A DNA stretch of 17,046 nucleotides, taken from the IMG/VR virus record IMGVR_UViG_3300045988_086891; one strand, 5' to 3'. Position numbers and translations under genes: made by a program. The notes beneath the pieces were generated by a model. It did no database searches, was not told the origin of the DNA, and worked only from the letters and a program-made list of their open reading frames with translations. How positions within the stretch are numbered: the stretch's first letter is position 1; each line of letters begins with the position of its first letter. Source of the DNA: a virus. This document shows positions 1 through 17,046 of this stretch, one piece after another.

Positions 1-55
1 CACAATTTGTTTACATTTTGGTCATACGCTGTTCACAACTGGCCTATATAATGTA
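1..55 (+). repeat. Terminal 55-nt element, copy 1 (candidate replication origin and/or promoter; TATAAT at 47..52)
   Basis: cacaatttgtttacattttggtcatacgctgttcacaactggcctatataatgta recurs identically at 194..248. The TATAAT lies 3 nt before the GGGG that opens the 122-nt repeat unit. I could not place a -35 at 16-18 nt spacing. Confidence 0.8.
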
Positions 56-177
56 GGGGTCGTTTCGAAAGTCGAGATTTTTGGTACATCCCATGCACTT
101 CACAGTGGTACAGTGTTAGCACGTCAGCGTGGTACAGTGAGTGCGCGAAGTTAGTTGTGTCTAACTTAGTACCATAG
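56..177 (+). repeat. GC-rich 122-nt repeat unit A (candidate structured ncRNA or protein-binding array)
   Basis: ggggtcgtttcgaaagtcgag...cttagtaccatag, about 58/122 G+C by hand count in a visibly AT-rich genome. Contains no credible ORF. Near-identical copy at 1016..1137, a deletion derivative at 1138..1197 and a mirror copy at 16870..16991. Predicted helices: tggtac(83-88)/gtacca(169-174), gcact-t-cac/gtgagtgc, and hairpin aagttag-ttgtgt-ctaactt. Confidence 0.85.
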
Positions 178-193
178 TACTATATAAAATGTT

Positions 194-248
194 CACAATT
201 TGTTTACATTTTGGTCATACGCTGTTCACAACTGGCCTATATAATGTA
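194..248 (+). repeat. Terminal 55-nt element, internal direct copy 2 (TATAAT at 240..245), upstream of the 300..623 CDS
   Basis: 55/55 identity with 1..55. Preceded by atgtt and followed by c (the terminal copy is followed by g). Confidence 0.9.
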
Positions 249-299
249 CTTAAAGATAAAGGAAAGGGGTACTCAACGAGGGTATCAAAGGTATATAGT

Positions 300-623
300 A
301 TGAAGCAATATATAAATTTGAATAATGAGATTTTTGAGGTCAAAAAAGTAAAGGGTGAATTGTACCCTATTCGAGAAGTGCGCGGTTTAGGTGATTGTTA
401 TAATAAACCTAGTAGGACAAAACACGAAATTTATAACGAATGGCTGAAATGGTATAAAATAGCTAATATGAATGAAGCAAATTATGCGTTTAGGCATTTT
501 ACAATAAACAGTTATAATTGTATGATGTTTACATTATCAATAGATGTATATGATTCTTCAACTGATAAATTTATAGGCCAGTTATATATCACAAAAACAA
601 GACAAGAGTTTTGGACTATTTAA
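300..623 (+). CDS. Hypothetical protein, ITR-encoded (107 aa from MKQYINLNN...)
   Basis: ORF 189..623 in the track. I prefer the ATG at 300 because aaagg lies 8 nt upstream, and because the first 20 codons of the long version are just the 55-nt terminal element read through. I recognise no family. Confidence 0.6.
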   Translation: MKQYINLNNEIFEVKKVKGELYPIREVRGLGDCYNKPSRTKHEIYNEWLKWYKIANMNEANYAFRHFTINSYNCMMFTLSIDVYDSSTDKFIGQLYITKTRQEFWTI

Positions 624-725
624 AATAGTCGAGTCGGTGCAACTCCGACTTCCTTGTATAGCTGATAGCAGTATCAGCAAGTAACAATCAAACAAGCACA
701 AAAAAAAGAAACGGAGACAAAAACT

Positions 726-1007
726 ATGAGAAAAGAAAAAATGATTACACGTACAATTGTAACTACAAACGCTGACATTATGGCATTTAACTTTGATACT
801 AACGAGGTTATAACTTTAAACGAGTCTTATATTGGTGATTTAAGCGATAAAGAAATTGAAAAGCAGTTTACAATAGATTATAGCAATAGTGCTAAATTCT
901 TAAAACTTGTAAACGCTGAGAAAACATCAAAATTGTATGGTATTTCAGAAAAAGATTTTTTGGAATATGCTGTAGAGCTTGACGAAAACAGAAAAGAGCT
1001 GAAATAA
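726..1007 (+). CDS. Putative phi29 p6-like histone-like dsDNA-binding protein, ITR-encoded paralogue
   Basis: 93 aa, with GGAG 10 nt upstream. Clearly homologous to 13824..14132 (shared MRKxxM[IV]TRTI[IV][ST]T and [KE]LYG[IM]xExDF). From memory these segments resemble phi29 p6 (..REITKTTVNVAKMV.. and ..EVYELPVEKFLEVA..). Confidence 0.7.
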   Translation: MRKEKMITRTIVTTNADIMAFNFDTNEVITLNESYIGDLSDKEIEKQFTIDYSNSAKFLKLVNAEKTSKLYGISEKDFLEYAVELDENRKELK

Positions 1008-1015
1008 TATGATAT

Positions 1016-1137
1016 GGGGTCGTTTCGAAAGTCGAGATTTTTGGTACATCTCATGCACTTCATAGTGGTACAGTGTTAGCACGTCAGCGTAGTACCGTAA
1101 GTGCGCGAAGTTAGTTGTATCTAACTTAGTACCATAG
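1016..1137 (+). repeat. 122-nt repeat unit B (left end only, just outside the ITR)
   Basis: Same length as unit A with roughly 8 substitutions (for example cccatg to ctcatg, cacagtgg to catagtgg, cgtggtacagtgag to cgtagtaccgtaag, ttgtgt to ttgtat). It starts at the first base after the ITR. Confidence 0.9.
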
Positions 1138-1197
1138 GGGGTCGTTTCAAACGTCGAGAAAATCGGTACATCCCATGCACTTCACAGTGGTACCATG
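1138..1197 (+). repeat. Repeat unit C, internally deleted copy in tandem with unit B
   Basis: ggggtcgtttcaaacgtcgagaaaatcggtacatcccatgcacttcacagtggtac joins directly to catg. This resembles the unit end gtaccatag, so it looks like a deletion between two GTAC motifs. Confidence 0.75.
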
Positions 1198-1200
1198 AAC

Positions 1201-1241
1201 ATAAAAATGGAGTGATATGTGTTTTAACATATTACTCCATT
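1201..1241 (-). terminator. Rho-independent terminator of the late operon
   Basis: 15-bp stem (1206-1220 / 1227-1241, one G.U on the - strand RNA), 6-nt loop, then TTTTTAT on the - strand. It lies 7 nt after the stop of the appendage gene. Confidence 0.8.
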
Positions 1242-1247
1242 TGTAAA

Positions 1248-2759
1248 TTATAAATAGAATATATCTAATTTATTTAAATCATTTGCTTTTTGAATTATAC
1301 TTATTTTATTATCATTAATTTTTACTTTTGTAGTACCAACCATAGTTAGATATGTTGTGTGCAAAGGTACAGTTTCAAAGTAGTATAACACAGCATTATC
1401 TGTTTGTAATTCTGTACTTCTTAATACAATTTTTTTTAAAGAATATGGTAATGTAAGTTCATTTTTTATTTCTGTAATTGTACCTAATAATTTATTAAAA
1501 TTAACATTAATAAAATTGTATATAATTGTGTTATTGTACTCCCAGTTTAAAGTATTGGAAGTATAAATATTAGTTGCATGAGTATCGTTAATTGAACCAT
1601 TAATATAGTTATGCAACCCACTACCTCTTATTAGTGTATCAATATAATAATTATCCGTGCTATCATATAAGTAGTTAATAATGTTATATGCTCCGTCAAT
1701 TGTCATTAGTAAGCCACTATGGTCAGTAACTGGTTTACTTGTATCAAAATTATAGTAAGTACCTGCGTGACTGTATGAAAGATTGTTAATGGCATTGTTA
1801 TTACCAACAATATATAACCCAACACAAAACTCTTGTATATCAAAGTTACTGATCATATTTCTACTGCCAGTTAAAGATAACGCAGTTAATGATATTTCAA
1901 AACACTTACTATTTGTGAGCAAATTATTATTATATAATGTAATACCACTTTTGCAAAATGATACTAATATGTCATTAAAATTATTGTCAGTACCAATACA
2001 ATTTAATGCTTTATCGCACCAACTAATTTTACATTCATTTAATACACAGCTTCTACTTGAATTGGACATATTAATACCAGTTTGAAAATAATATATTTCA
2101 ACATTTATTATTGTATTTCTACTATCAGCGCCGTCACCCTTTTCATAATTTAAATTTATTCCATAACTAGGTTTAGTGAAAATACTGGTATTAATTCTAC
2201 CTTTTATTCCTATATTTTTAATTTCATTATTTTTACCAGTAATGTTAAAAATACTTGCATTACCATTTGACGTTATAGTAGTGTTTGTTATGCCACATCC
2301 TATAATAGTTTTATCATCTGTTATTTCTATTGTCTCTGAAATTAAATAAATGCCACTAGGAAAAATAACAGCTTTTCCCGAAGATAAAGCATTCTTAATA
2401 AATACTGTATCATCATGTATGCCGTCACCTTTAGCGCCATACATTTGTGGTGTAACATAAAAGTTAAAATATTTTTGAAATATTAATGTTAATTCACCAC
2501 TTTTTACCATTTCGTCAAGCTTCTTATTAATTTCTTCCTGCACATCAAGATTTTTAAAATAGTTGTCAACATAAGTTTTAAGTGTATTAAATGCACTTTG
2601 TAGTTCATCAAAGTTTTCACTTAATTTATTAACATTTTCCATTGTTTTATTCAAGTAATCGACAACTTTACACAATAACTCATAATAACTTAAGCTATCA
2701 TCATATACCAATGGTAATACCTTTTGACACCAAAATCTAAATGGTCTTAAATCGTTCAT
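1248..2759 (-). CDS. Pre-neck appendage / tail fibre receptor-binding protein with a right-handed beta-helix (pectate-lyase-like) domain
   Basis: The YGAKGDGIHDDTVFIKNALSSGKAVIFPSGIYLI motif is typical of Pectate_lyase_3-type tailspikes. The N-terminal FWCQKVLPLVYDDSLSYYELLCKV anchor followed by a coiled coil is common in Firmicute phage fibres. Last gene of the structural operon, as phi29 gp12 is. GAGG RBS. Confidence 0.85.
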   Translation of the reverse strand: MNDLRPFRFWCQKVLPLVYDDSLSYYELLCKVVDYLNKTMENVNKLSENFDELQSAFNTLKTYVDNYFKNLDVQEEINKKLDEMVKSGELTLIFQKYFNFYVTPQMYGAKGDGIHDDTVFIKNALSSGKAVIFPSGIYLISETIEITDDKTIIGCGITNTTITSNGNASIFNITGKNNEIKNIGIKGRINTSIFTKPSYGINLNYEKGDGADSRNTIINVEIYYFQTGINMSNSSRSCVLNECKISWCDKALNCIGTDNNFNDILVSFCKSGITLYNNNLLTNSKCFEISLTALSLTGSRNMISNFDIQEFCVGLYIVGNNNAINNLSYSHAGTYYNFDTSKPVTDHSGLLMTIDGAYNIINYLYDSTDNYYIDTLIRGSGLHNYINGSINDTHATNIYTSNTLNWEYNNTIIYNFINVNFNKLLGTITEIKNELTLPYSLKKIVLRSTELQTDNAVLYYFETVPLHTTYLTMVGTTKVKINDNKISIIQKANDLNKLDIFYL

Positions 2760-2777
2760 TTTTACCTCGCTTTCCTT

Positions 2778-3551
2778 TTACCATAAAGTAAAGAAACAAT
2801 CACTACAATCCTCAATAATCATCATATCAATATTGAGAAAAGTCTCTCTAAATTTTTTTAATAAACTGCTATAATTTTCTGTTCCTTGTTTGCCTTTTAC
2901 TGTTTCAATATATTTATCAGTACTATTAATATTTTCTGTACCATTTCCAGTTTTACTATCATCCCTTGTCAACGTATCTGTACTTGTATTAGTAGTCGTA
3001 TTATCTTCATTAACCTTAGTAACTGTAGTTAAAGGTACACTATCAGCAATTCCCTGTGTGTCCATACTATTTTGTGGAGTATCACTAAATCTATTCAAAG
3101 TATTAGTATTACTTGTACCACTTCCACTACTAACATTTTTACTTGTACCGCTATTAGTTTCTCTATTATTACTTGTCCTATTACTTGTACCGCTACCCTC
3201 TCTACTCCTAGTCAAATCCACATCATAAAAAGGATTAAACTCAAGCAACTCGCTTTTATACAACTGATTGTAATAAGGCATAATCTCATTGAGCTTAGCA
3301 TTTAATGCAAGCTTCCACCTGCCTACAGTCTCATGCGCAATCTCTCTTGTATAATAATGTTTCAATATCTTCCTGCACAAAACCTGTCTATAGTTTTCAT
3401 CAAAGATAGGAAAGTCAAAATTAAAAATTTTATTCCAACACCTATCTAAAATACTATCAACATTGTATGCACCCTCACTCTTACTCAAGCCTGCACTATT
3501 TTCACAAATAAATCGTACCTCTGTTGTATACTTACTCACTATTCTCACCAC
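2778..3551 (-). CDS. Lower collar protein (phi29 gp11-like)
   Basis: Lies directly after the portal gene. The N-terminal SKYTTEVRFICE...FDFPIFDENYR...LKHYYTREI pattern is typical of lower collar proteins. The start is non-ATG: GTG at 3551, or GTG at 3539 preceded by ggtggtgag. Confidence 0.8.
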   Translation of the reverse strand: MVRIVSKYTTEVRFICENSAGLSKSEGAYNVDSILDRCWNKIFNFDFPIFDENYRQVLCRKILKHYYTREIAHETVGRWKLALNAKLNEIMPYYNQLYKSELLEFNPFYDVDLTRSREGSGTSNRTSNNRETNSGTSKNVSSGSGTSNTNTLNRFSDTPQNSMDTQGIADSVPLTTVTKVNEDNTTTNTSTDTLTRDDSKTGNGTENINSTDKYIETVKGKQGTENYSSLLKKFRETFLNIDMMIIEDCSDCFFTLW

Positions 3552-4428
3552 CTTTGCCTACGTCAGTTTCATTACTCAAATCTGCTTTATCAACATCATA
3601 AGTATCAAGCACCTGCATGTCCTCTCTATAATCAACACTAATGTTTAATCCAAACATTTTGTTAATCTGCTCACAGGCCTGCTGTCTCATAAACAATCTT
3701 GAATACCTACTAGCAATAGTGCCACCTAAGTTTCTTTGTACTTCATCAGTTATCATTCTTTCTTTCTTTATAGTATTAACATTACTAATACCTAAGTAAG
3801 TTAGCGCTTCATTCCAGTATTGAGTCTTTAACTCATACAGTTTATCGGCAACGTATGGACTTGTTGTATCAAGCGTTTTAATACCGCTTAAGTCTAAGTT
3901 TTTATCACCAAAAATGAATGGTTCATTACCCATATACTGTGCATACAGATTTTTCATCACCAATCTCTGATTTTCAGTACAAGTGATAATCTTAGGTGTT
4001 TTCTGCTGTATAATGTTTACGTCAATAGTTCTCTGTATTTCATACAGCCTTTTACTCATTTCCTGCACATCAAGTATGCTGTTAGTGTGTAACATGTTAT
4101 TAAAAATAATAACACTGTTACTAGGGTCAAGTTTCATTTGATAACCATTTTGTGCAAATGCTGTTCTAGTAATAGGTATTCTGTAAACATCAAGAGCGCC
4201 GCCAATAATAACTTGTAAACCTAAATAACCCATGACTTCATCTTTAAAAAATACTGCCATTCCATCATTGAAAAGTGCTAGTTCTAAGAACCTTGCGTCA
4301 ATAGTATCAGGTAAGTTCTTCCAGTCAAACATTGATATGCTTAATTCTGTTAGTCTATTAACATACTGTAGATATGTTCGCTGATTTTGTAAGAAAGCTT
4401 CGTCCTGCGCTTTTCTTCCTTTTCTCAT
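3532..4428 (-). CDS. Portal / upper collar connector protein (phi29 gp10-like)
   Basis: FDWKNLPDTIDARFLE, QKTPKIITCTENQRL..NLYAQYMGNEPFIF and KKERMITDEV align by eye with phi29 gp10 (FEWENLPPTINPSFLE, QKTPVLIRANDNNQL..QVYNQYEGNAPVIF, KKERMVTDEV). RBS agaggtgag. Confidence 0.95.
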   Translation of the reverse strand: MRKGRKAQDEAFLQNQRTYLQYVNRLTELSISMFDWKNLPDTIDARFLELALFNDGMAVFFKDEVMGYLGLQVIIGGALDVYRIPITRTAFAQNGYQMKLDPSNSVIIFNNMLHTNSILDVQEMSKRLYEIQRTIDVNIIQQKTPKIITCTENQRLVMKNLYAQYMGNEPFIFGDKNLDLSGIKTLDTTSPYVADKLYELKTQYWNEALTYLGISNVNTIKKERMITDEVQRNLGGTIASRYSRLFMRQQACEQINKMFGLNISVDYREDMQVLDTYDVDKADLSNETDVGKGGENSE

Positions 4429-4443
4429 TGTCTCACCTCTTTT

Positions 4444-5964
4444 CTAACTAGGACTGTTATCTAATGAATAGTTACCTATTTCACTAGCATTTTTCCAAAA
4501 TGTAATACCATTGTTAAATATATTTTTTATTTCAGTTATATCATTATTGTTACATTTATTTCCTATTATACAGCAATTCTGTGTTTTTGTGTAGTTCCAA
4601 TGTGGTCTACTCTTTATGTCCGGTACTTTTACTCTTTTAGTGGCATAGCCGTATTTGTCAAAATATTCATCAATAATATGAGCATATTGTGGTGTTACTT
4701 GCATTTGTTTAAAGTAAAAATCTTTGTTGCGTGTAGCAACATCAATTGAACCACTATTACTTCCTCTTGTCTGTGGCGGTTTACTGTATGCTAACATAGC
4801 ATCTATACCATTATCAACTAAACCAGTTGCACCACTTAATGCTAATTCCGGATTAAAACTACTCATCCCTGCAACAACTGTACCAGTATTTAACAAAGCT
4901 GACATAGTTAATTTACTAGCTGATTGAGCTAACCACGCTTTATAAGCATCAACAGACCATGCCACTTGTGGAAAATCACCCATAACTAATTTTTCTGAAT
5001 AATTACCTTCATCAACATTAGTACCATTATAACCCATAGGAACTAATGCTATTTGTGGATTTCCTACAACACTTCCGTATAAAGCAAAATCACAAGTATT
5101 TTTTACAAACCATTCATACCTATATATTGCAGAGTTATCGCAACAATCTACTGCTAAATAGTTAAAAGGGTATGTTAATAATTTTTTATTTTTTGGTGTA
5201 TAACCCCCAATTGTAGTGTTTTTTGCTACTACGTTTACTTGCACACTTGGCTGTGTAGTTGTTGTGTAAAAATCACTTGGCATTAAAAAAATATTTACAA
5301 TGCTATCTTGTTTGTTAGCTTGCGTTGCTGTATCTAAATAGGTTAATAGTGCTTGTACTTGTTCATCATTGTCTACTCTGCCTGCTATATAATCTACTCC
5401 ACTAAATAACCCGCCTTGATAGCCACCAGTTTTTGTGCCCTCTTTTGCAAAAGTTGTTGCTATTACTGCGCTATAGCTTGCAAAATGTCCACTTTTACTT
5501 ATAGCATTACAAACAATCGGCCCAGTATCAATATTTTCTGTTACGATATTACTGCCTGCATAATCAATACTGCTATGTTCTCTTTCAACAAAACTCTCTT
5601 TAAGAGTGCAGTCAAAAAGAAACCATGTCTGCATTACATCAATAGTAAAATATACATTGCTAACTTTATCGTTCACATACTCAATATTAGTAATAAAAGC
5701 ATAAAACCATTTACTGCCATAGTTAGTATTTTGAAACATCATATAATTACAATCATAAATACTTTCTGCATTAGCACTCATTCTCACAACACCCTGCTGT
5801 CCGTTAATTCTCTGAAAACTAGCTTTATCCATTGTCTTGCTAACTTTACTTTCAAAATAAGTTTTCTGCGCATCCCTGCTTGCAAAGTAAATAGTATCTT
5901 TATAACTGCTATCTATTGGTACACCACTGCATAATTTGATAATACTATTAGGTTGTATTTGCAT
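4444..5964 (-). CDS. Tail knob / distal tube protein (phi29 gp9-like)
   Basis: NYMMFQNTNYGSKWFYAFITNIEYVND..VYFTIDVMQTWF..ESFVEREH parallels phi29 gp9 SYIMFQNADYGNKWFYAFVTELEFKNS..VHFEIDVLQTWM..ESFIVREH. Confidence 0.93.
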   Translation of the reverse strand: MQIQPNSIIKLCSGVPIDSSYKDTIYFASRDAQKTYFESKVSKTMDKASFQRINGQQGVVRMSANAESIYDCNYMMFQNTNYGSKWFYAFITNIEYVNDKVSNVYFTIDVMQTWFLFDCTLKESFVEREHSSIDYAGSNIVTENIDTGPIVCNAISKSGHFASYSAVIATTFAKEGTKTGGYQGGLFSGVDYIAGRVDNDEQVQALLTYLDTATQANKQDSIVNIFLMPSDFYTTTTQPSVQVNVVAKNTTIGGYTPKNKKLLTYPFNYLAVDCCDNSAIYRYEWFVKNTCDFALYGSVVGNPQIALVPMGYNGTNVDEGNYSEKLVMGDFPQVAWSVDAYKAWLAQSASKLTMSALLNTGTVVAGMSSFNPELALSGATGLVDNGIDAMLAYSKPPQTRGSNSGSIDVATRNKDFYFKQMQVTPQYAHIIDEYFDKYGYATKRVKVPDIKSRPHWNYTKTQNCCIIGNKCNNNDITEIKNIFNNGITFWKNASEIGNYSLDNSPS

Positions 5965-5978
5965 ATCTTCACCGCCTT

Positions 5979-6009
5979 TAAAAGTAGGAGAGCAATTACA
6001 CTCTCCTAC
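5979..6009 (-). terminator. Intra-operon stem-loop terminator/attenuator after the capsid gene
   Basis: Perfect 9-bp stem gtaggagag/ctctcctac (5984-5992 / 6001-6009), 8-nt loop, then TTTTA on the - strand. It sits between the capsid stop (6021) and the tail knob start (5964). Confidence 0.6.
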
Positions 6010-6020
6010 TATATCTTATT

Positions 6021-7388
6021 TTACGCAACTGTAATAGTTGCTTCGCCATACTTAGTACTATCAAACGTGCTAGTAGCCTTTACAGTAATAGTTCCTGCTT
6101 CAGCATCACTATTAACTTTAAGCATACCAGTACTTGAAATACTAGCCTTAGCACCCTCTTCTGCAATACTCCAAATAACACTCTGTGGTGCATAGTTATC
6201 AGTATCAACAGTATCATTTAGCTGTAACTGACCACCTGCACTAACTGTAGCTGTACTAGGTGTAACTGTAACTTTCTTGACTGCAGGAACACCTGCAACA
6301 AATAGCGCATTGTTTGAGAACGGAGACACGGAAAATGTTTTCCATACATGATACCAGTAGTTCCAATACAGTCCCTCACCATTGTACTGTTCTGTAAAGT
6401 TCTGATAGTTGTCGAATATCATGAACCAGTCACTATCAACCATTACACAAGGTATAGCGTCAAGTGCTTCAAGTTCTTCCTTGTTTATCTCTGTATAAGT
6501 TGGGTCATCAGCAAAGAGAATATTTAATCTCTCGATATCTAAATCTCCGAAACTATCTACAAGTACATGATGTCCGTCAAACTCTGCTCTATCCATATTA
6601 AAAGCACTAGCAAGTACTTCAACATTCATAGTAGCATCAAACTGTGAATTGACTAACAAATACTGTTCCTGCTTAGGTGTATGGTTCATAACTCCTGCAA
6701 GGTTATTCTTTGAGTTAAGGAAAGTAAACTTGTTTGATACTCCCTTGATAGTACTAACAATGCTATTCATGTTTGCTGTGTTAATAGCAGGAATAGTAAC
6801 TGGGTTCATCAGGCCATTTAAAATATGCTTTGCAAGCATATACTTCATAGTCTGAAACTCGTCATAGTTAGCACCAGTATACATAGCATCTACAATCTTA
6901 GCAATCAAATCTGTAATACCGTCAATAGACAAAAAAGCCTGCCTTAACTGGTCATTCGAGATTGTAGCTTTGTAGAATTTCTGATAGTTCATAACGTGAA
7001 AAGCACTACGTACATCAGGAATTTCACGTTTGAATACATTGGACTCTGCAACCTGTGGGTCAAACTGGAACGGTTTTGCGATATTAACAAATACTTCCTC
7101 GATAGACTCACCAAACTCGAGCATACCTTTTTTAAACATAGCCCATGGATTGTCGTATGATTTGCTTGTTAAAATTACTCTGCCTATTCTGTTTACAAGA
7201 GCAGACAAAAACTCATTCTGTAAAGCAGGGTAGTCCATAATTACTGCACCTATTTCTCTGATTGAGTCAGAGTCTGCTGTAGCCTGTGGTACATAATCTT
7301 TGTAATTTGTGCTTGCGTTATTTCTTATTGCATTTAAGATGTCAACGCTTGAATTAGTAAGTGTTTTAATTTTTGGTTTTGTAGCCAT
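6021..7388 (-). CDS. Major capsid protein with a C-terminal Ig-like (Big_2-type) domain
   Basis: 455 aa, downstream of the scaffold gene. The C-terminal VTVTPSTATVSAGGQLQL...ITVKATS...GEATITVA is a typical Big_2 fold signature, as in the phi29 gp8 architecture. RBS agagagg. Confidence 0.88.
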   Translation of the reverse strand: MATKPKIKTLTNSSVDILNAIRNNASTNYKDYVPQATADSDSIREIGAVIMDYPALQNEFLSALVNRIGRVILTSKSYDNPWAMFKKGMLEFGESIEEVFVNIAKPFQFDPQVAESNVFKREIPDVRSAFHVMNYQKFYKATISNDQLRQAFLSIDGITDLIAKIVDAMYTGANYDEFQTMKYMLAKHILNGLMNPVTIPAINTANMNSIVSTIKGVSNKFTFLNSKNNLAGVMNHTPKQEQYLLVNSQFDATMNVEVLASAFNMDRAEFDGHHVLVDSFGDLDIERLNILFADDPTYTEINKEELEALDAIPCVMVDSDWFMIFDNYQNFTEQYNGEGLYWNYWYHVWKTFSVSPFSNNALFVAGVPAVKKVTVTPSTATVSAGGQLQLNDTVDTDNYAPQSVIWSIAEEGAKASISSTGMLKVNSDAEAGTITVKATSTFDSTKYGEATITVA

Positions 7389-7393
7389 AATTC

Positions 7394-7723
7394 CTAGTCC
7401 TCTCTTTCTTTAAATAAATCATCAAAGGAAATGTCTTTACCATCATCAGTAATATCTTCCTTTTGGTCTTTCATTACTGTTGTAGGGTCTGTACCCTCTT
7501 TGCCCTCAAAAAATCGTGCTTTATATTTCTCTCTCCACTCATTGTCATTCTGTTCATATTTTGCTTTCCAATCAGTAGTATCACTTGCACGTGTTTCAAG
7601 GTCATTAAATGTATCAGTAAAATTCTCAATCATAGTAAGTGTGTTATCATCAGCGTTATCACCTGCTAAACCTTTTACTGCACTCATAAAATCATCATGT
7701 GAAAGTACTGCCATTTTTCTCAC
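7394..7723 (-). CDS. Putative scaffolding protein (phi29 gp7-like position)
   Basis: 109 aa, strongly acidic with predicted helices, immediately upstream of the capsid gene. Confidence 0.65.
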   Translation of the reverse strand: MRKMAVLSHDDFMSAVKGLAGDNADDNTLTMIENFTDTFNDLETRASDTTDWKAKYEQNDNEWREKYKARFFEGKEGTDPTTVMKDQKEDITDDGKDISFDDLFKERED

Positions 7724-7733
7724 CTCTTTTCTT

Positions 7734-9170: not shown

Positions 9171-9201
9171 GCTTTTATCTCCTTTCTTTTAATCTATTTT
9201 A

Positions 9202-9244: not shown

Positions 9245-9289
9245 AAATTTAGATAATTATATGCAAATTTAAGAAAAGAGTACAACAAT

Positions 9290-10330: not shown

Positions 10331-10448
10331 GTATCTGCTATTGTATGTTCACTTGATACTGCTAGGTAGCACGTTTGGAAGATAACGCTAGTATGTATTG
10401 TCGTAAATGCTGTGCGCTTGTGTTCTGCAATAGTTATAGATATAGAAA

Positions 10449-10486
10449 AGGCAAGAGTTTTTACTCCTGCCTTTTTGTTTTTTATT
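10449..10486. terminator. Bidirectional rho-independent terminator between the convergent ATPase and early transcripts
   Basis: Stem aggcaagag/ctcctgcct (one mismatch), loop ttttta, then TTTTGTTTTTTATTT on the + strand. On the - strand the same hairpin is followed by TTTCT. Confidence 0.8.
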
Positions 10487-10522
10487 TATAACAATTTAAT
10501 ATTTCTCCATAATATAATCTCC

Positions 10523-10756
10523 TTATTTGTAAAAATGATTGTGTATATCTGTTGCAATTAATATGTTTAATGATAGTACAATTTCTCTTGTATCTTTTTT
10601 CTTTATAAAATCGTATGATAGTAACTTTGAAATGTATAATCCATTTAAACAATATTCTATTTTATACTGCTCTGTATATGATACATCATAAAACTCGATT
10701 GAACCTCTAAATCTTTTGCGTAGTTCTTGTACTACTTTTTCCATTTTATCATTCAT
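10523..10756 (-). CDS. Hypothetical protein (77 aa from MNDKMEKVV...), last gene of the early operon
   Basis: ORF 10523..10870 in the track. The ATG at 10756 has a strong RBS (gggagag, 8-nt spacer). An ATG at 10837 would add a hydrophobic MKKLVIIFAVFAS leader but has no clear RBS. Confidence 0.55.
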   Translation of the reverse strand: MNDKMEKVVQELRKRFRGSIEFYDVSYTEQYKIEYCLNGLYISKLLSYDFIKKKDTREIVLSLNILIATDIHNHFYK

Positions 10757-10892
10757 AATTTTATCTCTCCCTTGTAAAATAATCACAATCATATCTGTAC
10801 TTGCAAAAACAGCAAATATGATTACAAGTTTTTTCATGTTTCTTTGCTTTGTGCCTGTAATATAAATCAACTAACCATGTTATCATATTGTT

Positions 10893-12836
10893 TCACCTCA
10901 TTTCATATGTCGTGTCCACCAATAATACACCACCTTTTATTCTTTTTGGTAGTAATTTTCCAGGGACACATAATCCAGCTTTAAAATCACTATAGTCTCT
11001 TTTTGTTTCTAAAAATTTTAATTCACTTTGCGTATAATTATCACTCTCCTTTGCTTCATAACCCTGCATTGATTTGTCAAATAAATCTTTGCATTTCTGT
11101 GGCATTCCTGCGCATTTAATATCGTTGTATGGTTCATCAATAGGAACTAAATCATTGTGAGTTATGTGTTCTATGTATGTTTTCTGTCTTGTAAAAATAG
11201 CTGTGTCCCAACTGCTTTCAAATTTCCAACAGCAAAATTTCACAGGGTCTACTGTTATACCTTTTATTTTATCAGCAGGCAAGTCACAATGTATACTGTC
11301 AGTGTCAGCGTAAATAAATCCTGCTTTATCTACACCATAGTAATTTTTTTGAGCGGCTGTTATCGTAAAGTTTCGTGCATAGGATGTTATTGCACTACCT
11401 GTTGCTATATGCCCCACCTTTTTATTATTAGCAGGGACTATATAGAAACCAATACTTTCATCCTCTTTTACATATGCAACCTTAAAACTACTGTTGGAAC
11501 TGCTAGCAAGTTTACCATAAAGATTATTGAGAAACAGTTTTGCTTCTGTACGCTTTGCACCTTTGCTATTCATTTTAATTTCTGCATAATGATTGATATA
11601 TTTATCAAATATACCTATAGCAGAATAAAACCAACAACCGTCTAAGATTTCAAAGTCAACTAGTTCATAGTGCTTTAACATTAGTTTATAATCTGTCATT
11701 GTTACTGTCATTATTTGTGTAGTATCTTTTATGTTACCATTAATATCTTTATAGTATCTATTGTAGTTTCCATTTTTATCTAATACATCACTAGTTGTTA
11801 ATGACTCTGTACCTTTATATAAATGATTACCTTTTATTTGAATAAATGGCAACATATTTTCTTTAATATAAAAGCGTGTTTTTATTCTTAAAAAATAATA
11901 TTTATTTTCACCTATTGCTTCGTTAGGTATTATATTACCAGTCCAAAAATATGGTTTACCTATTGGAAAATAATTACCACTTTGCGAGTGCATCATACTA
12001 GGATATAAAGAGTTTACATCAGCTGTCGCTCCGTTATGTCTAACAATATTTTCTTTTCCTTTTACTAAATAGCACCAACCCCCTCTATAGCTGTGCCGTA
12101 TATATTCGTCTGCATTTGATGAACCATAAATATTTTTATCAAGTGTAAATTCATCAAGGGCAGGGAATAAATCATTATAATCATAAGCGCCTAAAGAATT
12201 TTTATATTCTGCTACACAACACGAACCTATTGTTAATTTATCGTGTCCATCATTAAATAACTGTTCAAGTGCTTCTTTAACTACTAATACGTCATTTGCT
12301 ATATATTTCTTTTCTTTATCAGTTATATTGCAACCTGCATATCTGTAGCCAACATATTCCATATCTAATTTTTGGTGCTTTGTTTTAAAAGATTTTCCTA
12401 TTTGCTTTACTGAAAATGGTAATAACTTTAAGCTATCTCTTAATTCGATAAAATGATTATTAACTTTAATAGTAACCATATACCATTGACCCATTGAAGA
12501 TATAGTATATCTAAATGTATTATTTTTCATGTATCTTTCTTTTATAAACTCGCCTTGTGTTCCATCTTCATTAAATGACTCATACGCTTGTTCATATTTT
12601 AAATTCGTTAATAAATATGACAGCCAAAAATTGCCGTCAAATTTAAGATTGTGATAGTATGCTATTATGTCACAATCTAATGACTTAAAATAATTAAACT
12701 GTTCATTTATAGAATGAAAAATCTGAACGTTTTCGGTGTATAATTCTACGCTTGCACTAGCCCACACTTCAGTAGATTTCTGACCCTCATATACTGTAGT
12801 CTCAAAATCACACATAAATTTTCTATAGTTTCTCAT
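10893..12836 (-). CDS. Protein-primed family-B DNA polymerase (phi29 gp2-like)
   Basis: ExoI DFETT, ExoII HNLKFDGNF, ExoIII YIANDV, motif A DVNSLYPS, motif B KLFLNNLYGK, motif C YADTDS. The C-terminal KCAGMP...GGVLLVDTTYEM parallels phi29 KCAGMT...GGVVLVDDTFTI. Confidence 0.97.
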   Translation of the reverse strand: MRNYRKFMCDFETTVYEGQKSTEVWASASVELYTENVQIFHSINEQFNYFKSLDCDIIAYYHNLKFDGNFWLSYLLTNLKYEQAYESFNEDGTQGEFIKERYMKNNTFRYTISSMGQWYMVTIKVNNHFIELRDSLKLLPFSVKQIGKSFKTKHQKLDMEYVGYRYAGCNITDKEKKYIANDVLVVKEALEQLFNDGHDKLTIGSCCVAEYKNSLGAYDYNDLFPALDEFTLDKNIYGSSNADEYIRHSYRGGWCYLVKGKENIVRHNGATADVNSLYPSMMHSQSGNYFPIGKPYFWTGNIIPNEAIGENKYYFLRIKTRFYIKENMLPFIQIKGNHLYKGTESLTTSDVLDKNGNYNRYYKDINGNIKDTTQIMTVTMTDYKLMLKHYELVDFEILDGCWFYSAIGIFDKYINHYAEIKMNSKGAKRTEAKLFLNNLYGKLASSSNSSFKVAYVKEDESIGFYIVPANNKKVGHIATGSAITSYARNFTITAAQKNYYGVDKAGFIYADTDSIHCDLPADKIKGITVDPVKFCCWKFESSWDTAIFTRQKTYIEHITHNDLVPIDEPYNDIKCAGMPQKCKDLFDKSMQGYEAKESDNYTQSELKFLETKRDYSDFKAGLCVPGKLLPKRIKGGVLLVDTTYEMR

Positions 12837-13375
12837 ATATTATCTAAATCAGTAAAACCAAAATATTCGTTAATATCATTAGATTGTATTGCTGATATTC
12901 GTGACATATCGTGATTTGATAATAAAGGTATTAAATCTTCTGTTTTTGCCTGCACTACTTCTGAATATACACTCTCATTTATACTATCTATGGCAGATAT
13001 AATTTCTTCTTCATTTTGTTGTAAATAATACTCGTACTGTTCACTTCCAAAATCTTCTTGCATTTGTTTTATAATTCCTAAAACAGTATAGTAAAAATTT
13101 TCGAGATTATAGTCTATAGCTTCACCGCCATGTGTGTATGCTTGTTTTTTACTAGGTAAAGCCTGCAATCTTGAAATAATACTATCTGTCACTGTATAAG
13201 TTTCTGCGCTTTGTCTTTGTGCTATTTCTGATTGTAAATCTTGCAAAGTATCTTGTGATATTCTTTTTGGAAAAGCTTTTAACCCTTGTGTATTAATACC
13301 TTGTTGCTCTGCTTTGTCTAATATAGCTTGATATGCTTTTTGATTTTTTGATAGTCGTTTCTTTGCCATACTCAT
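12833..13375 (-). CDS. Putative terminal protein (replication primer)
   Basis: The call rests on position only. It lies immediately upstream of the polymerase with an ATGA stop/start overlap, as phi29 gene 3 does. 180 aa with a basic N-terminus and acidic C-terminus, and a strong RBS (agaggag). I recognise no sequence motif. Confidence 0.5.
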   Translation of the reverse strand: MSMAKKRLSKNQKAYQAILDKAEQQGINTQGLKAFPKRISQDTLQDLQSEIAQRQSAETYTVTDSIISRLQALPSKKQAYTHGGEAIDYNLENFYYTVLGIIKQMQEDFGSEQYEYYLQQNEEEIISAIDSINESVYSEVVQAKTEDLIPLLSNHDMSRISAIQSNDINEYFGFTDLDNI

Positions 13376-13400
13376 TTTTCTCCTCTCTGAATTAATAAGA

Positions 13401-13424
13401 CCCCTGCTAACTTAATAGCAAGGG
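13401..13424 (-). terminator. Stem-loop between the SSB-like and terminal-protein genes (weak terminator/attenuator or processing site)
   Basis: On the - strand, cccttgct-attaagtt-agcagggg forms 8 bp including one G.U (a C.A mismatch on the + strand, so the fold favours the - strand RNA). It is followed by tcttatt. Confidence 0.35.
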
Positions 13425-13443
13425 CCAACAGAAAAAATAAAAT

Positions 13444-13800
13444 TTATTTTACTGATTTTACATCAAGAGCACAGTCGATATAAGGCCTGCCTGCCTTCGT
13501 TGTACCGCTAACTTTAATAACACTGAATGATTTGCCATGCATAATGTTAGTAATATTATCAAAACTACGCTTGAAAGTAGCTGACTGACAAGAGAATACC
13601 TCATTGTCTGGTGTAATGATTGATAATATATCAACGCTATCTCCGTTTTCTTTTTCGTCTGTAAATGTAAGATATCCTGCTACTGAAATACTTGTGTTGT
13701 CCGTTACATCCTTTAATGACTGAATACCTCTATCTAATGTCATTAAATACTGCTCTACCTCTGTAAAATCCTTTGACTGTGAATTAATTGTAATTGCCAT
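13444..13800 (-). CDS. Hypothetical protein, possible single-stranded DNA-binding protein (phi29 gp5 position)
   Basis: 118 aa, lying between the p6-like gene and the putative terminal protein gene, which is the slot and size of phi29 gene 5. No motif recognised. Confidence 0.5.
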   Translation of the reverse strand: MAITINSQSKDFTEVEQYLMTLDRGIQSLKDVTDNTSISVAGYLTFTDEKENGDSVDILSIITPDNEVFSCQSATFKRSFDNITNIMHGKSFSVIKVSGTTKAGRPYIDCALDVKSVK

Positions 13801-13823
13801 GTTTGTTTATCTCCTTTTCTTTT

Positions 13824-14132
13824 TTATTCTGCGTCTGACTGCTCTGTCTCAATCGCTTTACGTGTAGCAGGGTCAAGTATCTTTGCGCCCTTGATGAAGT
13901 CTGCTTCATCCATGCCATAAAGTTCATTAACTTCCTTGAGTGAACGAATTGCAACAAGTGTGCAAGCATCTGTGTTGTAAAGTTTTGATGATATTTTTAA
14001 TGCTTTGTCCTTGTCAGCAATCTTGCCAGTAAGTGTAAACTCCTGCTCGAATGTCTCAGCAGTCTGTGGATTTACGCATAAAGCTGTGACTGTTGTTGAA
14101 ATAATTGTACGTGTAACCATTGGTTTTCTCAT
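13824..14132 (-). CDS. Putative phi29 p6-like histone-like dsDNA-binding protein (internal copy)
   Basis: 102 aa with an acidic C-terminal tail, the first gene of the replication module. Paralogue of the ITR gene. Motifs MRKPMVTRTIISTT and ELYGMDEADFIKGA. RBS aaaggag. Confidence 0.7.
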   Translation of the reverse strand: MRKPMVTRTIISTTVTALCVNPQTAETFEQEFTLTGKIADKDKALKISSKLYNTDACTLVAIRSLKEVNELYGMDEADFIKGAKILDPATRKAIETEQSDAE

Positions 14133-14186
14133 AGTCTTTTTTCTCCTTTTCTTTGTGCTATGATTTGTAAAATTAAATGTAATAAA

Positions 14187-14215
14187 GTTATAACACCATA
14201 AGGTGTAGTAGTCAA
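14187..14215 (-). promoter_or_regulatory. Promoter of the replication module (TTGACT -17 nt- TGtTATAAC on the - strand)
   Basis: -35 at 14210-14215 (plus-strand agtcaa), -10 at 14187-14192 (plus-strand gttata) with an extended TG. About 45 nt upstream of the p6-like start codon. Confidence 0.65.
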
Positions 14216-14250
14216 GTTGATTTTTTGCAATCTATTTGATGATAGCTTTA

Positions 14251-14421
14251 CTATCTCTTGACTATTATGCAGGAAAGAAAATCATCTGCTATATGATGAA
14301 TTACAATTTTACAATCCTCGCGATATATAGTTTCTATAGTAGCGCCTAGTTTATCAGTTTCAACCTCAATCTTTTGTGTATTGGGGTCTGTAATAAGCTG
14401 TGCATATAATGTTTCTATCAA
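14251..14421 (-). CDS. Candidate small ORF (56 aa, TTG start), hypothetical
   Basis: Not in the ORF track. (L/M)IETLYAQLITDPNTQKIEVETDKLGATIETIYREDCKIVIHHIADDFLSCIIVKR, with aaaggaagtga ending about 7-9 nt upstream of the TTG. Composition is protein-like. It fills part of an otherwise gene-free 587 bp. Confidence 0.3.
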   Translation of the reverse strand: MIETLYAQLITDPNTQKIEVETDKLGATIETIYREDCKIVIHHIADDFLSCIIVKR

Positions 14422-14451
14422 TGTTAATCACTTCCTTTTTCTTTGAGGAGT

Positions 14452-14490
14452 CCGCACTATTGAGTGTCGTATTGCCTAGCAATAGTGCGG
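14452..14490. promoter_or_regulatory. Perfect 11-bp inverted repeat ccgcactattg / caatagtgcgg with a 17-nt spacer
   Basis: Read directly from the sequence. GC-rich relative to its surroundings, with no U-tract on either strand, so it is not a canonical terminator. Confidence 0.6.
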
Positions 14491-14540
14491 TATCATAGTA
14501 TTAAAGCAAACGTTTTGTAAAAGATGTATTACCTCTTTAC

Positions 14541-14568
14541 ATATTATATAGTACAGTAGTAATGTAAA
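14541..14568 (-). promoter_or_regulatory. Candidate promoter (TTTACA -16 nt- TAATAT on the - strand) downstream of the iteron cluster
   Basis: -35 at 14563-14568 (plus-strand tgtaaa), -10 at 14541-14546. Weak call, and no ORF follows directly. Confidence 0.3.
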
Positions 14569-14617
14569 TGCAGTATGACTAATTTATTAACATTCTATGA
14601 ACTTTTTCGTATTTGAT

Positions 14618-14743
14618 TTTCTGTAATTTACGAAAATTTACGAAAACTTATGCAAATTATCCATAAATTTTATTCATCATTTTCTGTAATTTACGAAAAT
14701 TTACGAAAACTTATGCAAATTATCCATAAATTTTATTCATCAT
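14618..14743. repeat. Perfect tandem duplication, 2 x 63 bp
   Basis: tttctgtaatttacgaaaatttacgaaaacttatgcaaattatccataaattttattcatcat occurs at 14618-14680 and 14681-14743. Each copy holds the last 7 codons plus stop of the 82-aa gene and two 10-bp-spaced tacgaaaa motifs. Confidence 0.95.
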
Positions 14744-14968
14744 TTTATGATAATAATACATGTAATTTATATTACATTGTTTCATAAATACCTTTTCATC
14801 ATAATCTATTCTATTTGCAAAATATAAATATTCTATTTTATACAATAATAAATTAAATAATTGTGATATTATTCTAATACTATTATCTTTACCAATTAAC
14901 ATTGTTTCAAATTGGTTATATTCTTTGCGAATTAATCGCTCTAAAAAATGTTTTCTTTTCTGCGTCAT
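14720..14968 (-). CDS. Hypothetical small protein (82 aa), tandem paralogue 2
   Basis: Homologous to 15008..15250 (KRKHxLERxIRxEYxxF...LLYxKxxYLY...DxEKxFMxxCNxxYxYYH). RBS aaaggag. Confidence 0.7.
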   Translation of the reverse strand: MTQKRKHFLERLIRKEYNQFETMLIGKDNSIRIISQLFNLLLYKIEYLYFANRIDYDEKVFMKQCNINYMYYYHKMMNKIYG

Positions 14969-15007
14969 ATTATAAAAAATCTCCTTTTTATTTTATGATA
15001 AAGTTTA

Positions 15008-15250
15008 TTAATATATTCTATCAATATAATTGTGATAATATAAATAATAAACATTATTACAATTTATCATAAAATTCTTTTCACCGTCAGATATACTACC
15101 AATATCGTATAAATACCATACTTTAAAGTATAATAAATTTGCAATATGCTGTAATATTATTAAACTTTTTCCTTTAGGATAACATAAAGTATTAAAAAGT
15201 GTATATTCAAAACGTATAATTCTCTCTAATTTATGCTTTCTCTTATTCAT
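15008..15250 (-). CDS. Hypothetical small protein (80 aa), tandem paralogue 1
   Basis: See 14720..14968. Its start overlaps the upstream stop (ATGA). Confidence 0.7.
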   Translation of the reverse strand: MNKRKHKLERIIRFEYTLFNTLCYPKGKSLIILQHIANLLYFKVWYLYDIGSISDGEKNFMINCNNVYYLYYHNYIDRIY

Positions 15251-15546
15251 ATCATAAAAAACCTCTTTTCAATTATTCTATGATAAAGCTTGACTATATT
15301 ATCAGCAATTTCCTTTGATGATATGCAACTTAACATATCATAATCAAGTGTATCAAGAAAAAATCTTTTTTCACCTAGTTCACGGGTTTTGACTATAACA
15401 TACCACATGCCCTCTATATTTGCGTAACCATAGAAAACTTTTGCTTTTACCTTTTTAGCAACTTTAGTTGCTATCTCTATGACAAAATCCTCATAAATCT
15501 CGTCAATCTCACTTTTCGACATTTTTCTGTTTTTTGTATTTAACAT
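15247..15546 (-). CDS. Hypothetical protein (99 aa from MLNTKNRKMSK...)
   Basis: ORF 15247..15576 in the track. The ATG at 15546 has RBS aagagg with an 8-nt spacer and removes the overlap with the upstream gene. Confidence 0.65.
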   Translation of the reverse strand: MLNTKNRKMSKSEIDEIYEDFVIEIATKVAKKVKAKVFYGYANIEGMWYVIVKTRELGEKRFFLDTLDYDMLSCISSKEIADNIVKLYHRIIEKRFFMI

Positions 15547-15562
15547 AATTTGTACCTCTTTT

Positions 15563-15763
15563 CTATTCTTCAACATCCACTTGTAACATATTCTCGTTTT
15601 CTACAACCTTAAAGGCCACCACTTTCATTTTCTTTAATTGGTTATTTGACATAATTTGTGACTTTCTGTATAGTTCGTATATGTCGTACTGCACATCATG
15701 CAAGCGAAAATTTGTGGTTTTGCTAAATTTAATAAGTGTACCTAGTTTTATATTGTTTGTCAT
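15563..15763 (-). CDS. Hypothetical protein (66 aa from MTNNIKLGT...)
   Basis: ORF 15563..15781 in the track. The first six codons spell the RBS aaagaggtgaaaca for the ATG at 15763. Confidence 0.65.
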   Translation of the reverse strand: MTNNIKLGTLIKFSKTTNFRLHDVQYDIYELYRKSQIMSNNQLKKMKVVAFKVVENENMLQVDVEE

Positions 15764-15803
15764 TGTTTCACCTCTTTTCATTGTTTACTATATTCAGTTG
15801 GAA

Positions 15804-15850
15804 AGCCTATGCGTGGACTTGCACCACGCTGTGCGCTTTATGCTTAGGCT
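15804..15850 (-). other. GC-rich nested stem-loop in the intergenic gap
   Basis: Inner hairpin gcgtgg-acttgca-ccacgc (15811-15829), outer pairing agccta/taggct (15804-15809 / 15845-15850). The outer stem includes the stop codon of the 64-aa ORF. No U-tract. Confidence 0.45.
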
Positions 15851-16038
15851 ATTAATATTAAAATTTCTGAAGAAATTCTAGTAGTTACACAAGACATAAC
15901 AACTTTTACAGAATAATCTAAATATTCTGTTGGAATATTACAAGCCATACCACTCCATAATATTTTTTGCGTTGTTTCATATTGCAATTCTACAAATTGT
16001 CCATCTAAAAATACTCGGTATAAATCTTCTAATATCAT
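15844..16038 (-). CDS. Hypothetical protein (64 aa), first gene inside the right ITR boundary
   Basis: ORF from the track. Its first 7 nt (ATGATAT) lie inside the ITR. Weak RBS (aaagag). Confidence 0.55.
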   Translation of the reverse strand: MILEDLYRVFLDGQFVELQYETTQKILWSGMACNIPTEYLDYSVKVVMSCVTTRISSEILILIA

Positions 16039-16039
16039 A

Positions 16040-16321
16040 TTATTTCAGCTCTTTTCTGTTTTCGTCAAGCTCTACAGCATATTCCAAAAAATCTTTTTCT
16101 GAAATACCATACAATTTTGATGTTTTCTCAGCGTTTACAAGTTTTAAGAATTTAGCACTATTGCTATAATCTATTGTAAACTGCTTTTCAATTTCTTTAT
16201 CGCTTAAATCACCAATATAAGACTCGTTTAAAGTTATAACCTCGTTAGTATCAAAGTTAAATGCCATAATGTCAGCGTTTGTAGTTACAATTGTACGTGT
16301 AATCATTTTTTCTTTTCTCAT
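16040..16321 (-). CDS. Putative p6-like dsDNA-binding protein, right ITR copy
   Basis: Translation identical to 726..1007. Confidence 0.7.
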   Translation of the reverse strand: MRKEKMITRTIVTTNADIMAFNFDTNEVITLNESYIGDLSDKEIEKQFTIDYSNSAKFLKLVNAEKTSKLYGISEKDFLEYAVELDENRKELK

Positions 16322-16423
16322 AGTTTTTGTCTCCGTTTCTTTTTTTTGTGCTTGTTTGATTGTTACTTGCTGATACTGCTATCAGCTATACAAGGAAGTC
16401 GGAGTTGCACCGACTCGACTATT

Positions 16424-16747
16424 TTAAATAGTCCAAAACTCTTGTCTTGTTTTTGTGATATATAACTGGCCTATAAATTTATCAGTTGAAGAATCATATA
16501 CATCTATTGATAATGTAAACATCATACAATTATAACTGTTTATTGTAAAATGCCTAAACGCATAATTTGCTTCATTCATATTAGCTATTTTATACCATTT
16601 CAGCCATTCGTTATAAATTTCGTGTTTTGTCCTACTAGGTTTATTATAACAATCACCTAAACCGCGCACTTCTCGAATAGGGTACAATTCACCCTTTACT
16701 TTTTTGACCTCAAAAATCTCATTATTCAAATTTATATATTGCTTCAT
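16424..16747 (-). CDS. Hypothetical protein, right ITR copy of 300..623
   Basis: Translation identical to the left copy, with the same start-codon reasoning. Confidence 0.6.
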   Translation of the reverse strand: MKQYINLNNEIFEVKKVKGELYPIREVRGLGDCYNKPSRTKHEIYNEWLKWYKIANMNEANYAFRHFTINSYNCMMFTLSIDVYDSSTDKFIGQLYITKTRQEFWTI

Positions 16748-16798
16748 ACTATATACCTTTGATACCCTCGTTGAGTACCCCTTTCCTTTATCTTTAAG

Positions 16799-16853
16799 TA
16801 CATTATATAGGCCAGTTGTGAACAGCGTATGACCAAAATGTAAACAAATTGTG
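16799..16853 (-). repeat. 55-nt element, internal copy in the right ITR
   Basis: Mirror of 194..248. Confidence 0.9.
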
Positions 16854-16869
16854 AACATTTTATATAGTA

Positions 16870-16991
16870 CTATGGTACTAAGTTAGACACAACTAACTTC
16901 GCGCACTCACTGTACCACGCTGACGTGCTAACACTGTACCACTGTGAAGTGCATGGGATGTACCAAAAATCTCGACTTTCGAAACGACCCC
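16870..16991 (-). repeat. 122-nt repeat unit A-prime (right ITR copy of unit A)
   Basis: Mirror of 56..177. Confidence 0.9.
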
Positions 16992-17046
16992 TACATTATA
17001 TAGGCCAGTTGTGAACAGCGTATGACCAAAATGTAAACAAATTGTG
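16992..17046 (-). repeat. 55-nt element, terminal copy in the right ITR
   Basis: Mirror of 1..55. Confidence 0.8.

Follow-up and report, generated by a model that had tools for sequence, protein, structure and literature searches.

The 17,046-nucleotide (nt) IMG/VR record IMGVR_UViG_3300045988_086891, hereafter the window (the whole stretch of DNA that was analysed), is a complete phage genome, that of an uncultivated, phi29-like podovirus of the protein-primed type from the human gut. It begins and finishes on a perfect inverted repeat whose length is beyond chance: positions 1-1015 are the exact reverse complement of 16032-17046 (1015 nt, 100%), as an earlier note on this DNA had described. 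We consider it probable, with moderate confidence, that this long inverted terminal repeat (ITR) reflects a real and recent terminal inverted duplication, by which the right-end 960 bp of an ordinary genome were placed onto its left end. This explanation builds on what is directly observed: the anatomy of the repeat arm, the terminus common to the phage group, the same junction in another assembly and the nested termini of the relatives.

Probable origin of the long repeat from the right end

The comparison covered about 50 close relatives in IMG/VR, with capsid proteins 91-98% identical (L-numbers below are contig labels), and 30 public ENA/Logan contexts picked for an exact match to orf1 or orf2, the two genes carried by the repeat, or to an 80-amino-acid neighbour protein. 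In all of the approximately 50 relatives the segment with orf1 and orf2 was found at the right end only, in the same orientation as at 16032-16991, and their ITRs measured 55-172 bp and were mostly imperfect (92-99%). Similarly, all 30 of the ENA/Logan contexts listed show the arrangement of the window's right end, with the next early genes coming after orf2, and the contigs are mostly of 14.8-16.2 kb. Because this segment is confined to the right end in the relatives, the window can be read as an ordinary genome (1016-16991) to which the right 960 bp were added, inverted, at the left. Furthermore, since the inner boundary of the repeat (1016) coincides with an ordinary left genome terminus, the long ITR would be a secondary terminal duplication. 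A contig of the same group (L098, 15,979 nt) starts at GGGG, and another, 97% related (L121), starts at the equivalent of window position 1017. The long ITR is thus not a trait of the group, and the suggestion of the earlier note that the same early genes enter the cell first from whichever end is not needed, the ordinary genome having them at one end only.

The whole case for the long ITR depends on a single junction, 1015/1016, where internal sequence of the right end, running 7 nt into the next early gene, is joined to the canonical left terminus. Five public contigs were found with identical tail-fibre, connector and polymerase proteins. The contig L092/L105 (ERR1018290, MEGAHIT k127, 15,207 nt) is 100% identical to window 889-9928, holds the 1015/1016 junction and stops exactly 127 nt, that is, one k, past it; its length equals the unique part of 15,016 nt plus twice 127 nt, minus one copy of a 63-nt repeat. 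A full run of k=127 past the junction requires several independent fragments, so a single ligation chimera would be insufficient to produce it. A near-identical genome, L093/L106/L131 (ERZ27260283, k119, 15,225 nt), matched the window over ~9.7 kb with one mismatch and one gap. Here the junction is 981/1016, shifted by 34 nt from that of the window, and the right contig end lies at the predicted position 16184. The simplest reading of the 981 and 1015 junctions would be that a single ancestral duplication later lost 34 nt, in which case the long repeat would be heritable. Considering the recurrence of the same junction in one MEGAHIT contig (L092) and of the shifted one in a near-identical genome (L093), the junction appears to be present in the reads and to survive a change of assembler. 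A different situation is that of L096 (ERR1018249), whose positions 1-74 are unrelated GC-rich DNA lying past a terminus with altered first bases (AGAGACG); this extension is an ordinary chimera at a physical end.

Physical ends and nested termini of the group

The terminus of the group, 5'-GGGGTCGTTTCGAA, is the first base of element B of the repeat arm (Table 1), and many contigs from IMG/VR, ENA and JGI stop exactly there. In L050 a TruSeq adapter is fused to this terminus at both contig ends (at the left, positions 1-26), and in L030 the final 2 nt of an adapter (positions 1-2) precede it. Because the contigs of relatives and the adapters end on the terminus, the physical end of the group would correspond to window positions 56, 1016 and 16991, and not to base 1, which the earlier note had taken as the physical end. 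The arms as given in the window do not, then, both reach physical DNA ends; from base 56 inward they start at the canonical terminus.

The bases outside the conserved terminus GGGGTCG, which starts at window position 56, have an explanation of their own. Bases 1-55 number exactly 55 and are identical to 194-248, and the identity stops at once, base 56 being G and base 249 being C. Repeats with the size of an assembler k-mer are also present elsewhere: 55 nt in L038, 127 nt in L092 (k127) and 119 nt in L093 and L023 (k119). In our reading, 1-55 and 16992-17046 are a de Bruijn overlap of k=55 that marks a junction between the end of element A and the terminus (A/B, 248/56), and they are no genome end; this description fits those two stretches only, and not the remaining 960 nt. 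Window 1-248, with the order A-B-spacer-A, would likewise be a cycle in the graph that records the 248/56 junction. Such a junction means that the ends are heterogeneous or tandemly extended, and it is silent on where the molecule stops; the outermost structure may consist of an additional 193-bp unit, or it may represent a minority form.

It was also observed that the group has two types of terminus, GGGGTCGTTTCGAA... and CCCTGGTTACTCAC... (the CCCTGG type; ends of L016, L027, L042 and L038), both of which carry TTTTTGGTAC at ~21-32 nt from the end. The tectivirus PRD1 initiates at the fourth terminal base, on a 3'-CCCC template, and slides back stepwise (PMC4974454). By analogy, the GGGG start found here, likewise a run of four identical terminal bases, would fit a stepwise sliding-back initiation of that kind; PRD1 belongs to a different virus family.

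The left ends of close relatives consist of stacked units, each opening with the terminus, and the window itself has B'/B''. Three units are stacked in L121, at least six in L123 (a 14.8x contig) and units of 99 nt in L119/L124; stacks are also found in L033 and L047, and L122 shows A/GGGG at a coverage of only 6.9x. Where the arrays are readable throughout (L119/L124, L121, L123) every unit begins at the terminus. Right ends are likewise stacked in L082, L083 and L084. In another strain (L023) a perfect terminal inverted repeat of 119 nt, equal to k, was taken from ~1.03 kb in from the right end, which hints at an independent ITR of ~1.03 kb. Seven of the eight breakpoints correspond to inverted right-end pieces, the eighth (L120) being a direct left-end duplication that includes unique left-end sequence. 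Their distances from the copied end are ~122, 130, 143, 190 and 245 nt, and then 926, 960 and ~1030 nt; none of the eight falls inside orf1 or inside the body of orf2. These non-random breakpoints, together with readable added pieces that start at the true terminus, argue against library chimeras. We also considered ligation or PCR chimeras as the sole source of the junctions and judged this unlikely, given the full-k extension and the non-random partners. Terminal additions seem, from the sequences compared, to recur and to be inherited in this phage group.

Proposed mechanism and competing explanations

The long form probably originated by a template switch of the polymerase at run-off. At the left terminus, where the template strand runs out at its 5' end, the polymerase would continue rather than stop; it would switch onto the 5'-terminal region of another strand, for example a displaced strand, and copy it as far as that strand's 5' end. 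Each added piece would in this way start with a true terminus, and the left end would gain the right-terminal 960 bp in inverted form (segment R, with B, A, orf1 and orf2). The product would be a molecule of ~16.9 kb (16,936 bp) with a perfect 960-bp gene-carrying ITR, true ends at 56 and 16991 and a working origin at both ends, which would make it replicable. We would expect this long form to be packaged and infectious, and its size is plausible compared with the 16.27-16.73 kb of the complete relatives with two termini. Panhandle-type fold-back repair would be an alternative route, with a better fit for L023. A version of the process with short pieces, repeated in the group, would have left the old termini buried in the left end. 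Template switching by the phi29 polymerase in vivo has been documented (Murthy et al. 1998, as cited in PMC4974454). More tentatively, and with some doubt, we propose that this gut lineage enlarges its ITRs stepwise by run-off copying of a terminal piece from the other or the same end, which would pile up buried former termini and now and then duplicate whole early genes, and that the window is a viable product of it, with a gene-carrying ITR of ~0.96-1.15 kb, the longest in phi29-like phages, and two copies of the gene for a p6-like origin-binding protein.

Several observations weigh against the duplication. L107 (SPAdes, 16x) starts exactly at 1016 and is free of the junction; its 14,987 nt equal 1016-16065 minus 63, a length also compatible with the unique segment of a 926-nt form. 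An exact search of IMG/VR for either junction of the window gave no matches, and neither did a gapped pattern of orf2 followed by the terminus, nor a search of JGI metagenomes with a 27-mer specific for B'. The arms are 100% identical, versus 92-99% for the ordinary ITRs of relatives; this and the absence of the junctions from IMG/VR and JGI mean that the event would be very recent or transient. It should be noted that an assembly graph simply stops at a physical terminus, so that even a small minority of molecules bearing a junction would lengthen the contig there, and that contigs are uninformative on the fraction of such molecules. In addition, the MEGAHIT contig of ERR1018290, although made with another assembler, may come from the same reads or sample as the window. 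The second terminal junction (A/B) shows that ends in the sample are heterogeneous, and the junctions lack any microhomology that would speak directly for the switch mechanism.

According to a competing explanation, the ordinary 15,976-bp genome, with its 122-bp ITR, is what is packaged, and the 1015/1016 and 55/56 junctions are minority aberrant products or chimeras. The assembler would have followed them without competition at the physical end, and the symmetry of the graph would have made the perfect 1015-bp ITR. Contigs of the group do often run exactly k past the terminus (L092 127, L093 119, L038 55, L023 119), and the 74 nt of foreign DNA in L096 show that rare chimeras are assembled there. 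The complete identity of the arms, the two different junctions at the window's own termini and the different junctions of near-identical genomes, as if such events arose often, would also be expected. We nevertheless regard this explanation as unlikely: the partners are non-random, nearly all being inverted right-end pieces that run from the true terminus to a few clustered positions; an extension of full k, at k=127 or 119, requires several independent fragments; similar short additions are fixed and common to strains and samples, some of them at 7-15x coverage; and the 981 and 1015 junctions are most simply linked by descent.

Returning to the duplication as the preferred reading, two further views have to be set beside it. 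According to the earlier note, the window would be a stable 17,046-bp genome with protein-capped ends at 1 and 17046 and a standing ITR of 1,015 bp. The contig does start and stop exactly on the repeat, and the arrangement A-then-B is also found in L032, L039 and L122. We find this very improbable, because bases 1-55 have one common k-mer length and copy 194-248 exactly, the terminal CACAATTTG is unlike the terminus of the relatives (GGGGTCG, or CCCTGG in the second type), no relative ends at the equivalent of base 1, and A in L032 is preceded by the end of B and a spacer and is thus non-terminal. The other view is that of a pure software artefact, a fold-back path without reads produced by one assembler. 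Perfect inverted repeats at the ends of a metagenomic contig are known to call for caution, and the 43-nt "ITR" of L034 turned out to be merely a Nextera adapter. We give hardly any credence to it here, given that the same junction was obtained with a different assembler (MEGAHIT k127) and one more assembly carries a sister junction, observations that contradict such a path.

When a metagenomic contig of a linear phage ends in perfect inverted repeats, this is taken as a mark of completeness. Such a repeat may, as here, stem from a k-mer overlap (55, 119 or 127 nt), from an adapter or from a path through junction reads at a physical end, so that the length of an ITR, and the statement that a genome starts at base 1, are unreliable at face value. 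Adapters were seen at the ends of the public IMG/VR contigs L050, L034 and L030, and L034 would have given a false complete-genome call.

Content of the arms and of the genome, and comparison with known systems

The coordinates of the features are collected in Table 1. The earlier note was right that the arm holds two genes, orf1 and orf2; the promoter-like and structured elements that it also placed there proved weaker than claimed. orf1 was called as 107 amino acids by gene callers in 20 public contexts, and it had no match in Pfam or PHROGs. orf2 matches phrog_6370, "dsDNA binding protein" (E=2.7e-6), is 29% identical to the paralogue at 13824-14132 (E=1e-9) and is under purifying selection (codon-position differences 171/39/658). 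It gave no significant BLASTP similarity to the annotated p6 of Enterococcus phage Athos, and we treat it as a candidate p6-like protein on the basis of its PHROG family only. The hairpin between both genes is kept in the diverged relatives L015, L024 and L038; its match to the Rfam model "Tymo_tRNA-like" stays below threshold (25.6 bits, where the gathering score is 40) and probably came about by chance. In L142 (Logan SRR20648115_182, positions 1-411) a second 93-amino-acid gene call is located upstream of orf2, replacing the 107-amino-acid orf1, and strains seem to be mosaic in their early right-end region.

Table 1. Features of the window, from the left terminus to the right
Feature	Position	Strand	Basis or remark
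Element A, outer copy	1-55	+	Exact 55-nt copy of 194-248
Element B, putative terminal origin module (122 nt)	56-177	+	Starts with the conserved terminus 5'-GGGGTCGTTTCGAA
Spacer, 16 nt	178-193		
Element A, inner copy	194-248	+	Conserved upstream of orf1 in relatives; TATAAT at 240-245; two GTTCACAA repeats
orf1, 107 amino acids, early gene	300-623; right copy 16424-16747	+; right copy -	
Hairpin GAGTCGG-TGCAAC-TCCGACT	631-650; mirror 16397-16416	+	Between orf1 and orf2
orf2, 93 amino acids, candidate double-stranded (ds) DNA-binding protein	726-1007; right copy 16040-16321	+; right copy -	PHROG annotation, p6 kind
Next early gene, first 7 nt only	1009-1015	+	
Junction making the long ITR, ...ATGATAT/GGGGTCG	1009-1022	+	1015/1016
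Element B', left terminal module of the underlying genome, internal here	1016-1137	+	95% identical to B
Element B'', apparent older fossil terminus	1138-1193	+	89% versus first 56 nt of B; preceded by ...CCATAG/GGGG
Underlying canonical genome, 15,976 bp	1016-16991		122-bp imperfect ITR, 1016-1137 versus 16870-16991
Pre-neck appendage / tail-fibre protein, pectate-lyase fold	1248-2759	-	PF12708, phrog_4775
Lower collar (gp11-like adaptor)	2778-3551	-	phrog_5472, phrog_3225
Connector / upper collar (gp10)	3532-4428	-	PF05352, E=2e-63
Tail knob (gp9)	4444-5964	-	PF20934, PF16838
Major capsid protein, phi29-type, C-terminal Big_2 domain	6021-7388	-	PF25622, E=2e-102
gp16-type packaging ATPase	9290-10330	+	PF05894
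Protein-primed family-B DNA polymerase	10893-12836	-	PF03175, E=1e-39
Candidate terminal protein, 180 amino acids	12833-13375	-	Position only; stop overlaps polymerase start
Second p6-like dsDNA-binding paralogue, unique region	13824-14132	-	phrog_6370
Segment R, original right-terminal 960 bp (B, A, orf1, orf2)	16032-16991	-	Apparent source of left copy 56-1015
Mirror of 1-55	16992-17046	-	Same k-mer overlap in our reading

Element A corresponds to the promoter-like element of the earlier note (1-55, 194-248). It has a TATAAT box with no correctly spaced -35 box and was not called by a sigma-70 promoter scan of the window; as a standard sigma-70 promoter it was consequently rejected, and its inner copy (194-248) could act as an early promoter or as an operator. 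The idea that a weak promoter-like site on the minus strand (206 to 179) drives an outward transcript was also considered and found to be unsupported. Element B is what had been described as a structured repeat. RNA covariation was absent, with none of its 42 predicted pairs showing a compensatory change; since it has no Rfam match, an unremarkable single-sequence fold (z of -2.0) and an unfavourable covariation term, B was rejected as a prohead RNA (pRNA) or other structured RNA. Within B the motif GGTAC occurs at 83, 107 and 131, with an exact spacing of 24 nt, and an alignment of relatives gave terminal modules of 135, 159 and 183 nt, in exact steps of a 24-nt block. Because the length variants differ by exact 24-nt modules, B would be a DNA-level array for protein binding. 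In phi29, p6 dimers cover 24-bp units at the origins (PMC4974454). We suggest, from these periodicities, that B may be an origin region bound by p6-like proteins, one of which would be encoded within the duplicated segment itself.

The full phi29-type gene set that the earlier note placed between the arms is borne out by Pfam and PHROG matches. The genome is also whole, as had been claimed. The family-B polymerase, which is 33% identical to that of phi29 across 99% of its length, the set of gp10, gp9, gp11, capsid and gp16 proteins, and a linear genome in the 15-20 kb range with ITRs and a reiterated terminal base place it among the phi29-like phages, the small podoviruses of the Salasmaviridae / Guelinviridae type. 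The candidate terminal protein (12833-13375) had no homologue in Pfam, PHROGs or PDB. gp16 is the sole large gene on the plus strand besides the ITR copies. No pRNA was matched by Rfam anywhere in the window at E<=1, a model built on Bacillus phages only, so that its absence is unproven; the window has no tRNA and no Rfam family above threshold. The possibility of a prophage or of a piece of a larger replicon, raised by the earlier note as a refutation, was rejected, given that all matches to the major capsid protein in genome collections are stand-alone contigs of 14-17 kb. In an AT-rich non-coding stretch (14133-14741, ~590 nt), a 63-nt unit is perfectly duplicated in tandem (14616-14678 and 14679-14741), and 10-nt AATTTACGAA units recur in phase about nine times. 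The MEGAHIT contigs of the same strain have one copy fewer of this 63-nt repeat, as seen directly in L131 and as the length of L092 implies.

The nearest cultured relatives are the Clostridium phages CS229P1, P2 and P3 (OP172772-4; host Clostridium symbiosum), with genomes of 16.2-16.5 kb. They are the only GenBank group with a match at the DNA level, limited to the capsid gene at 73.6% nucleotide identity. CS229P1 has the gene order of the window and a short ITR of ~117 bp; these phages differ in that their ITR is free of genes and the left end leads directly into the tail gene. The small protein-primed podovirus asccphi28 of Lactococcus (EU438902) has an exact 577-bp ITR with GenBank-annotated promoters inside; in this case there is no coding sequence in the ITR and the polymerase is 25% identical to that of the window. 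Its record (L112) is flagged as circular in the collection, despite the 577-bp ITRs annotated at both ends. The Streptococcus phages Cp-1 and Cp-7 are protein-primed and have ITRs of a few hundred bp (in Cp-7 we measured ~382 bp at 97%), which contain annotated promoters and no whole genes; to our knowledge, nested termini have not been reported in them. In Bifidobacterium phage BadAztec4 (L114, MT006238) the last 620 nt at the right end repeat the internal segment 1737-2356 in inverted orientation, at 99.8% identity. Either the left 1.7 kb of that record is mis-oriented or there is a long ITR there too.

With regard to the mechanism, in adenovirus a damaged or different end of the protein-primed linear genome can be rebuilt from the other end via panhandle or strand-switch intermediates, and viable variants exist whose terminal sequences are reiterated or enlarged. 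Adenovirus infects eukaryotes and its terminal protein is unrelated, the likeness being in mechanism only. In phi29, polymerase switching in vivo takes place at specific sites and the rearranged molecules are mainly from the right end; the products are subgenomic (1-8 kb) and, in the account given in PMC4974454 of Murthy et al. 1998, are not reported as heritable, whereas the switch proposed here would occur at run-off and would give a full-length replicable genome.

As for the length, ITRs of 6-16 bp are found in the Bacillus phi29 group (PMC6266182) and of 25-30 bp in the C. perfringens podoviruses (PMC3362512). The earlier note had called the ITR of the window unusually long. If real, it would indeed exceed that of every isolate checked, the longest being the 577 bp of asccphi28. 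Were the long form packaged, its gene-carrying ITR of ~0.96 kb would be the longest known in the group, nearly doubling the phi29-like record, and an ITR in this group could hold whole expressed genes. Together with the fossil termini of the relatives, this would be ITR growth by terminal copying caught in progress, a sequence-documented route that would bear on the origin of ITRs in protein-primed viruses and linear plasmids.

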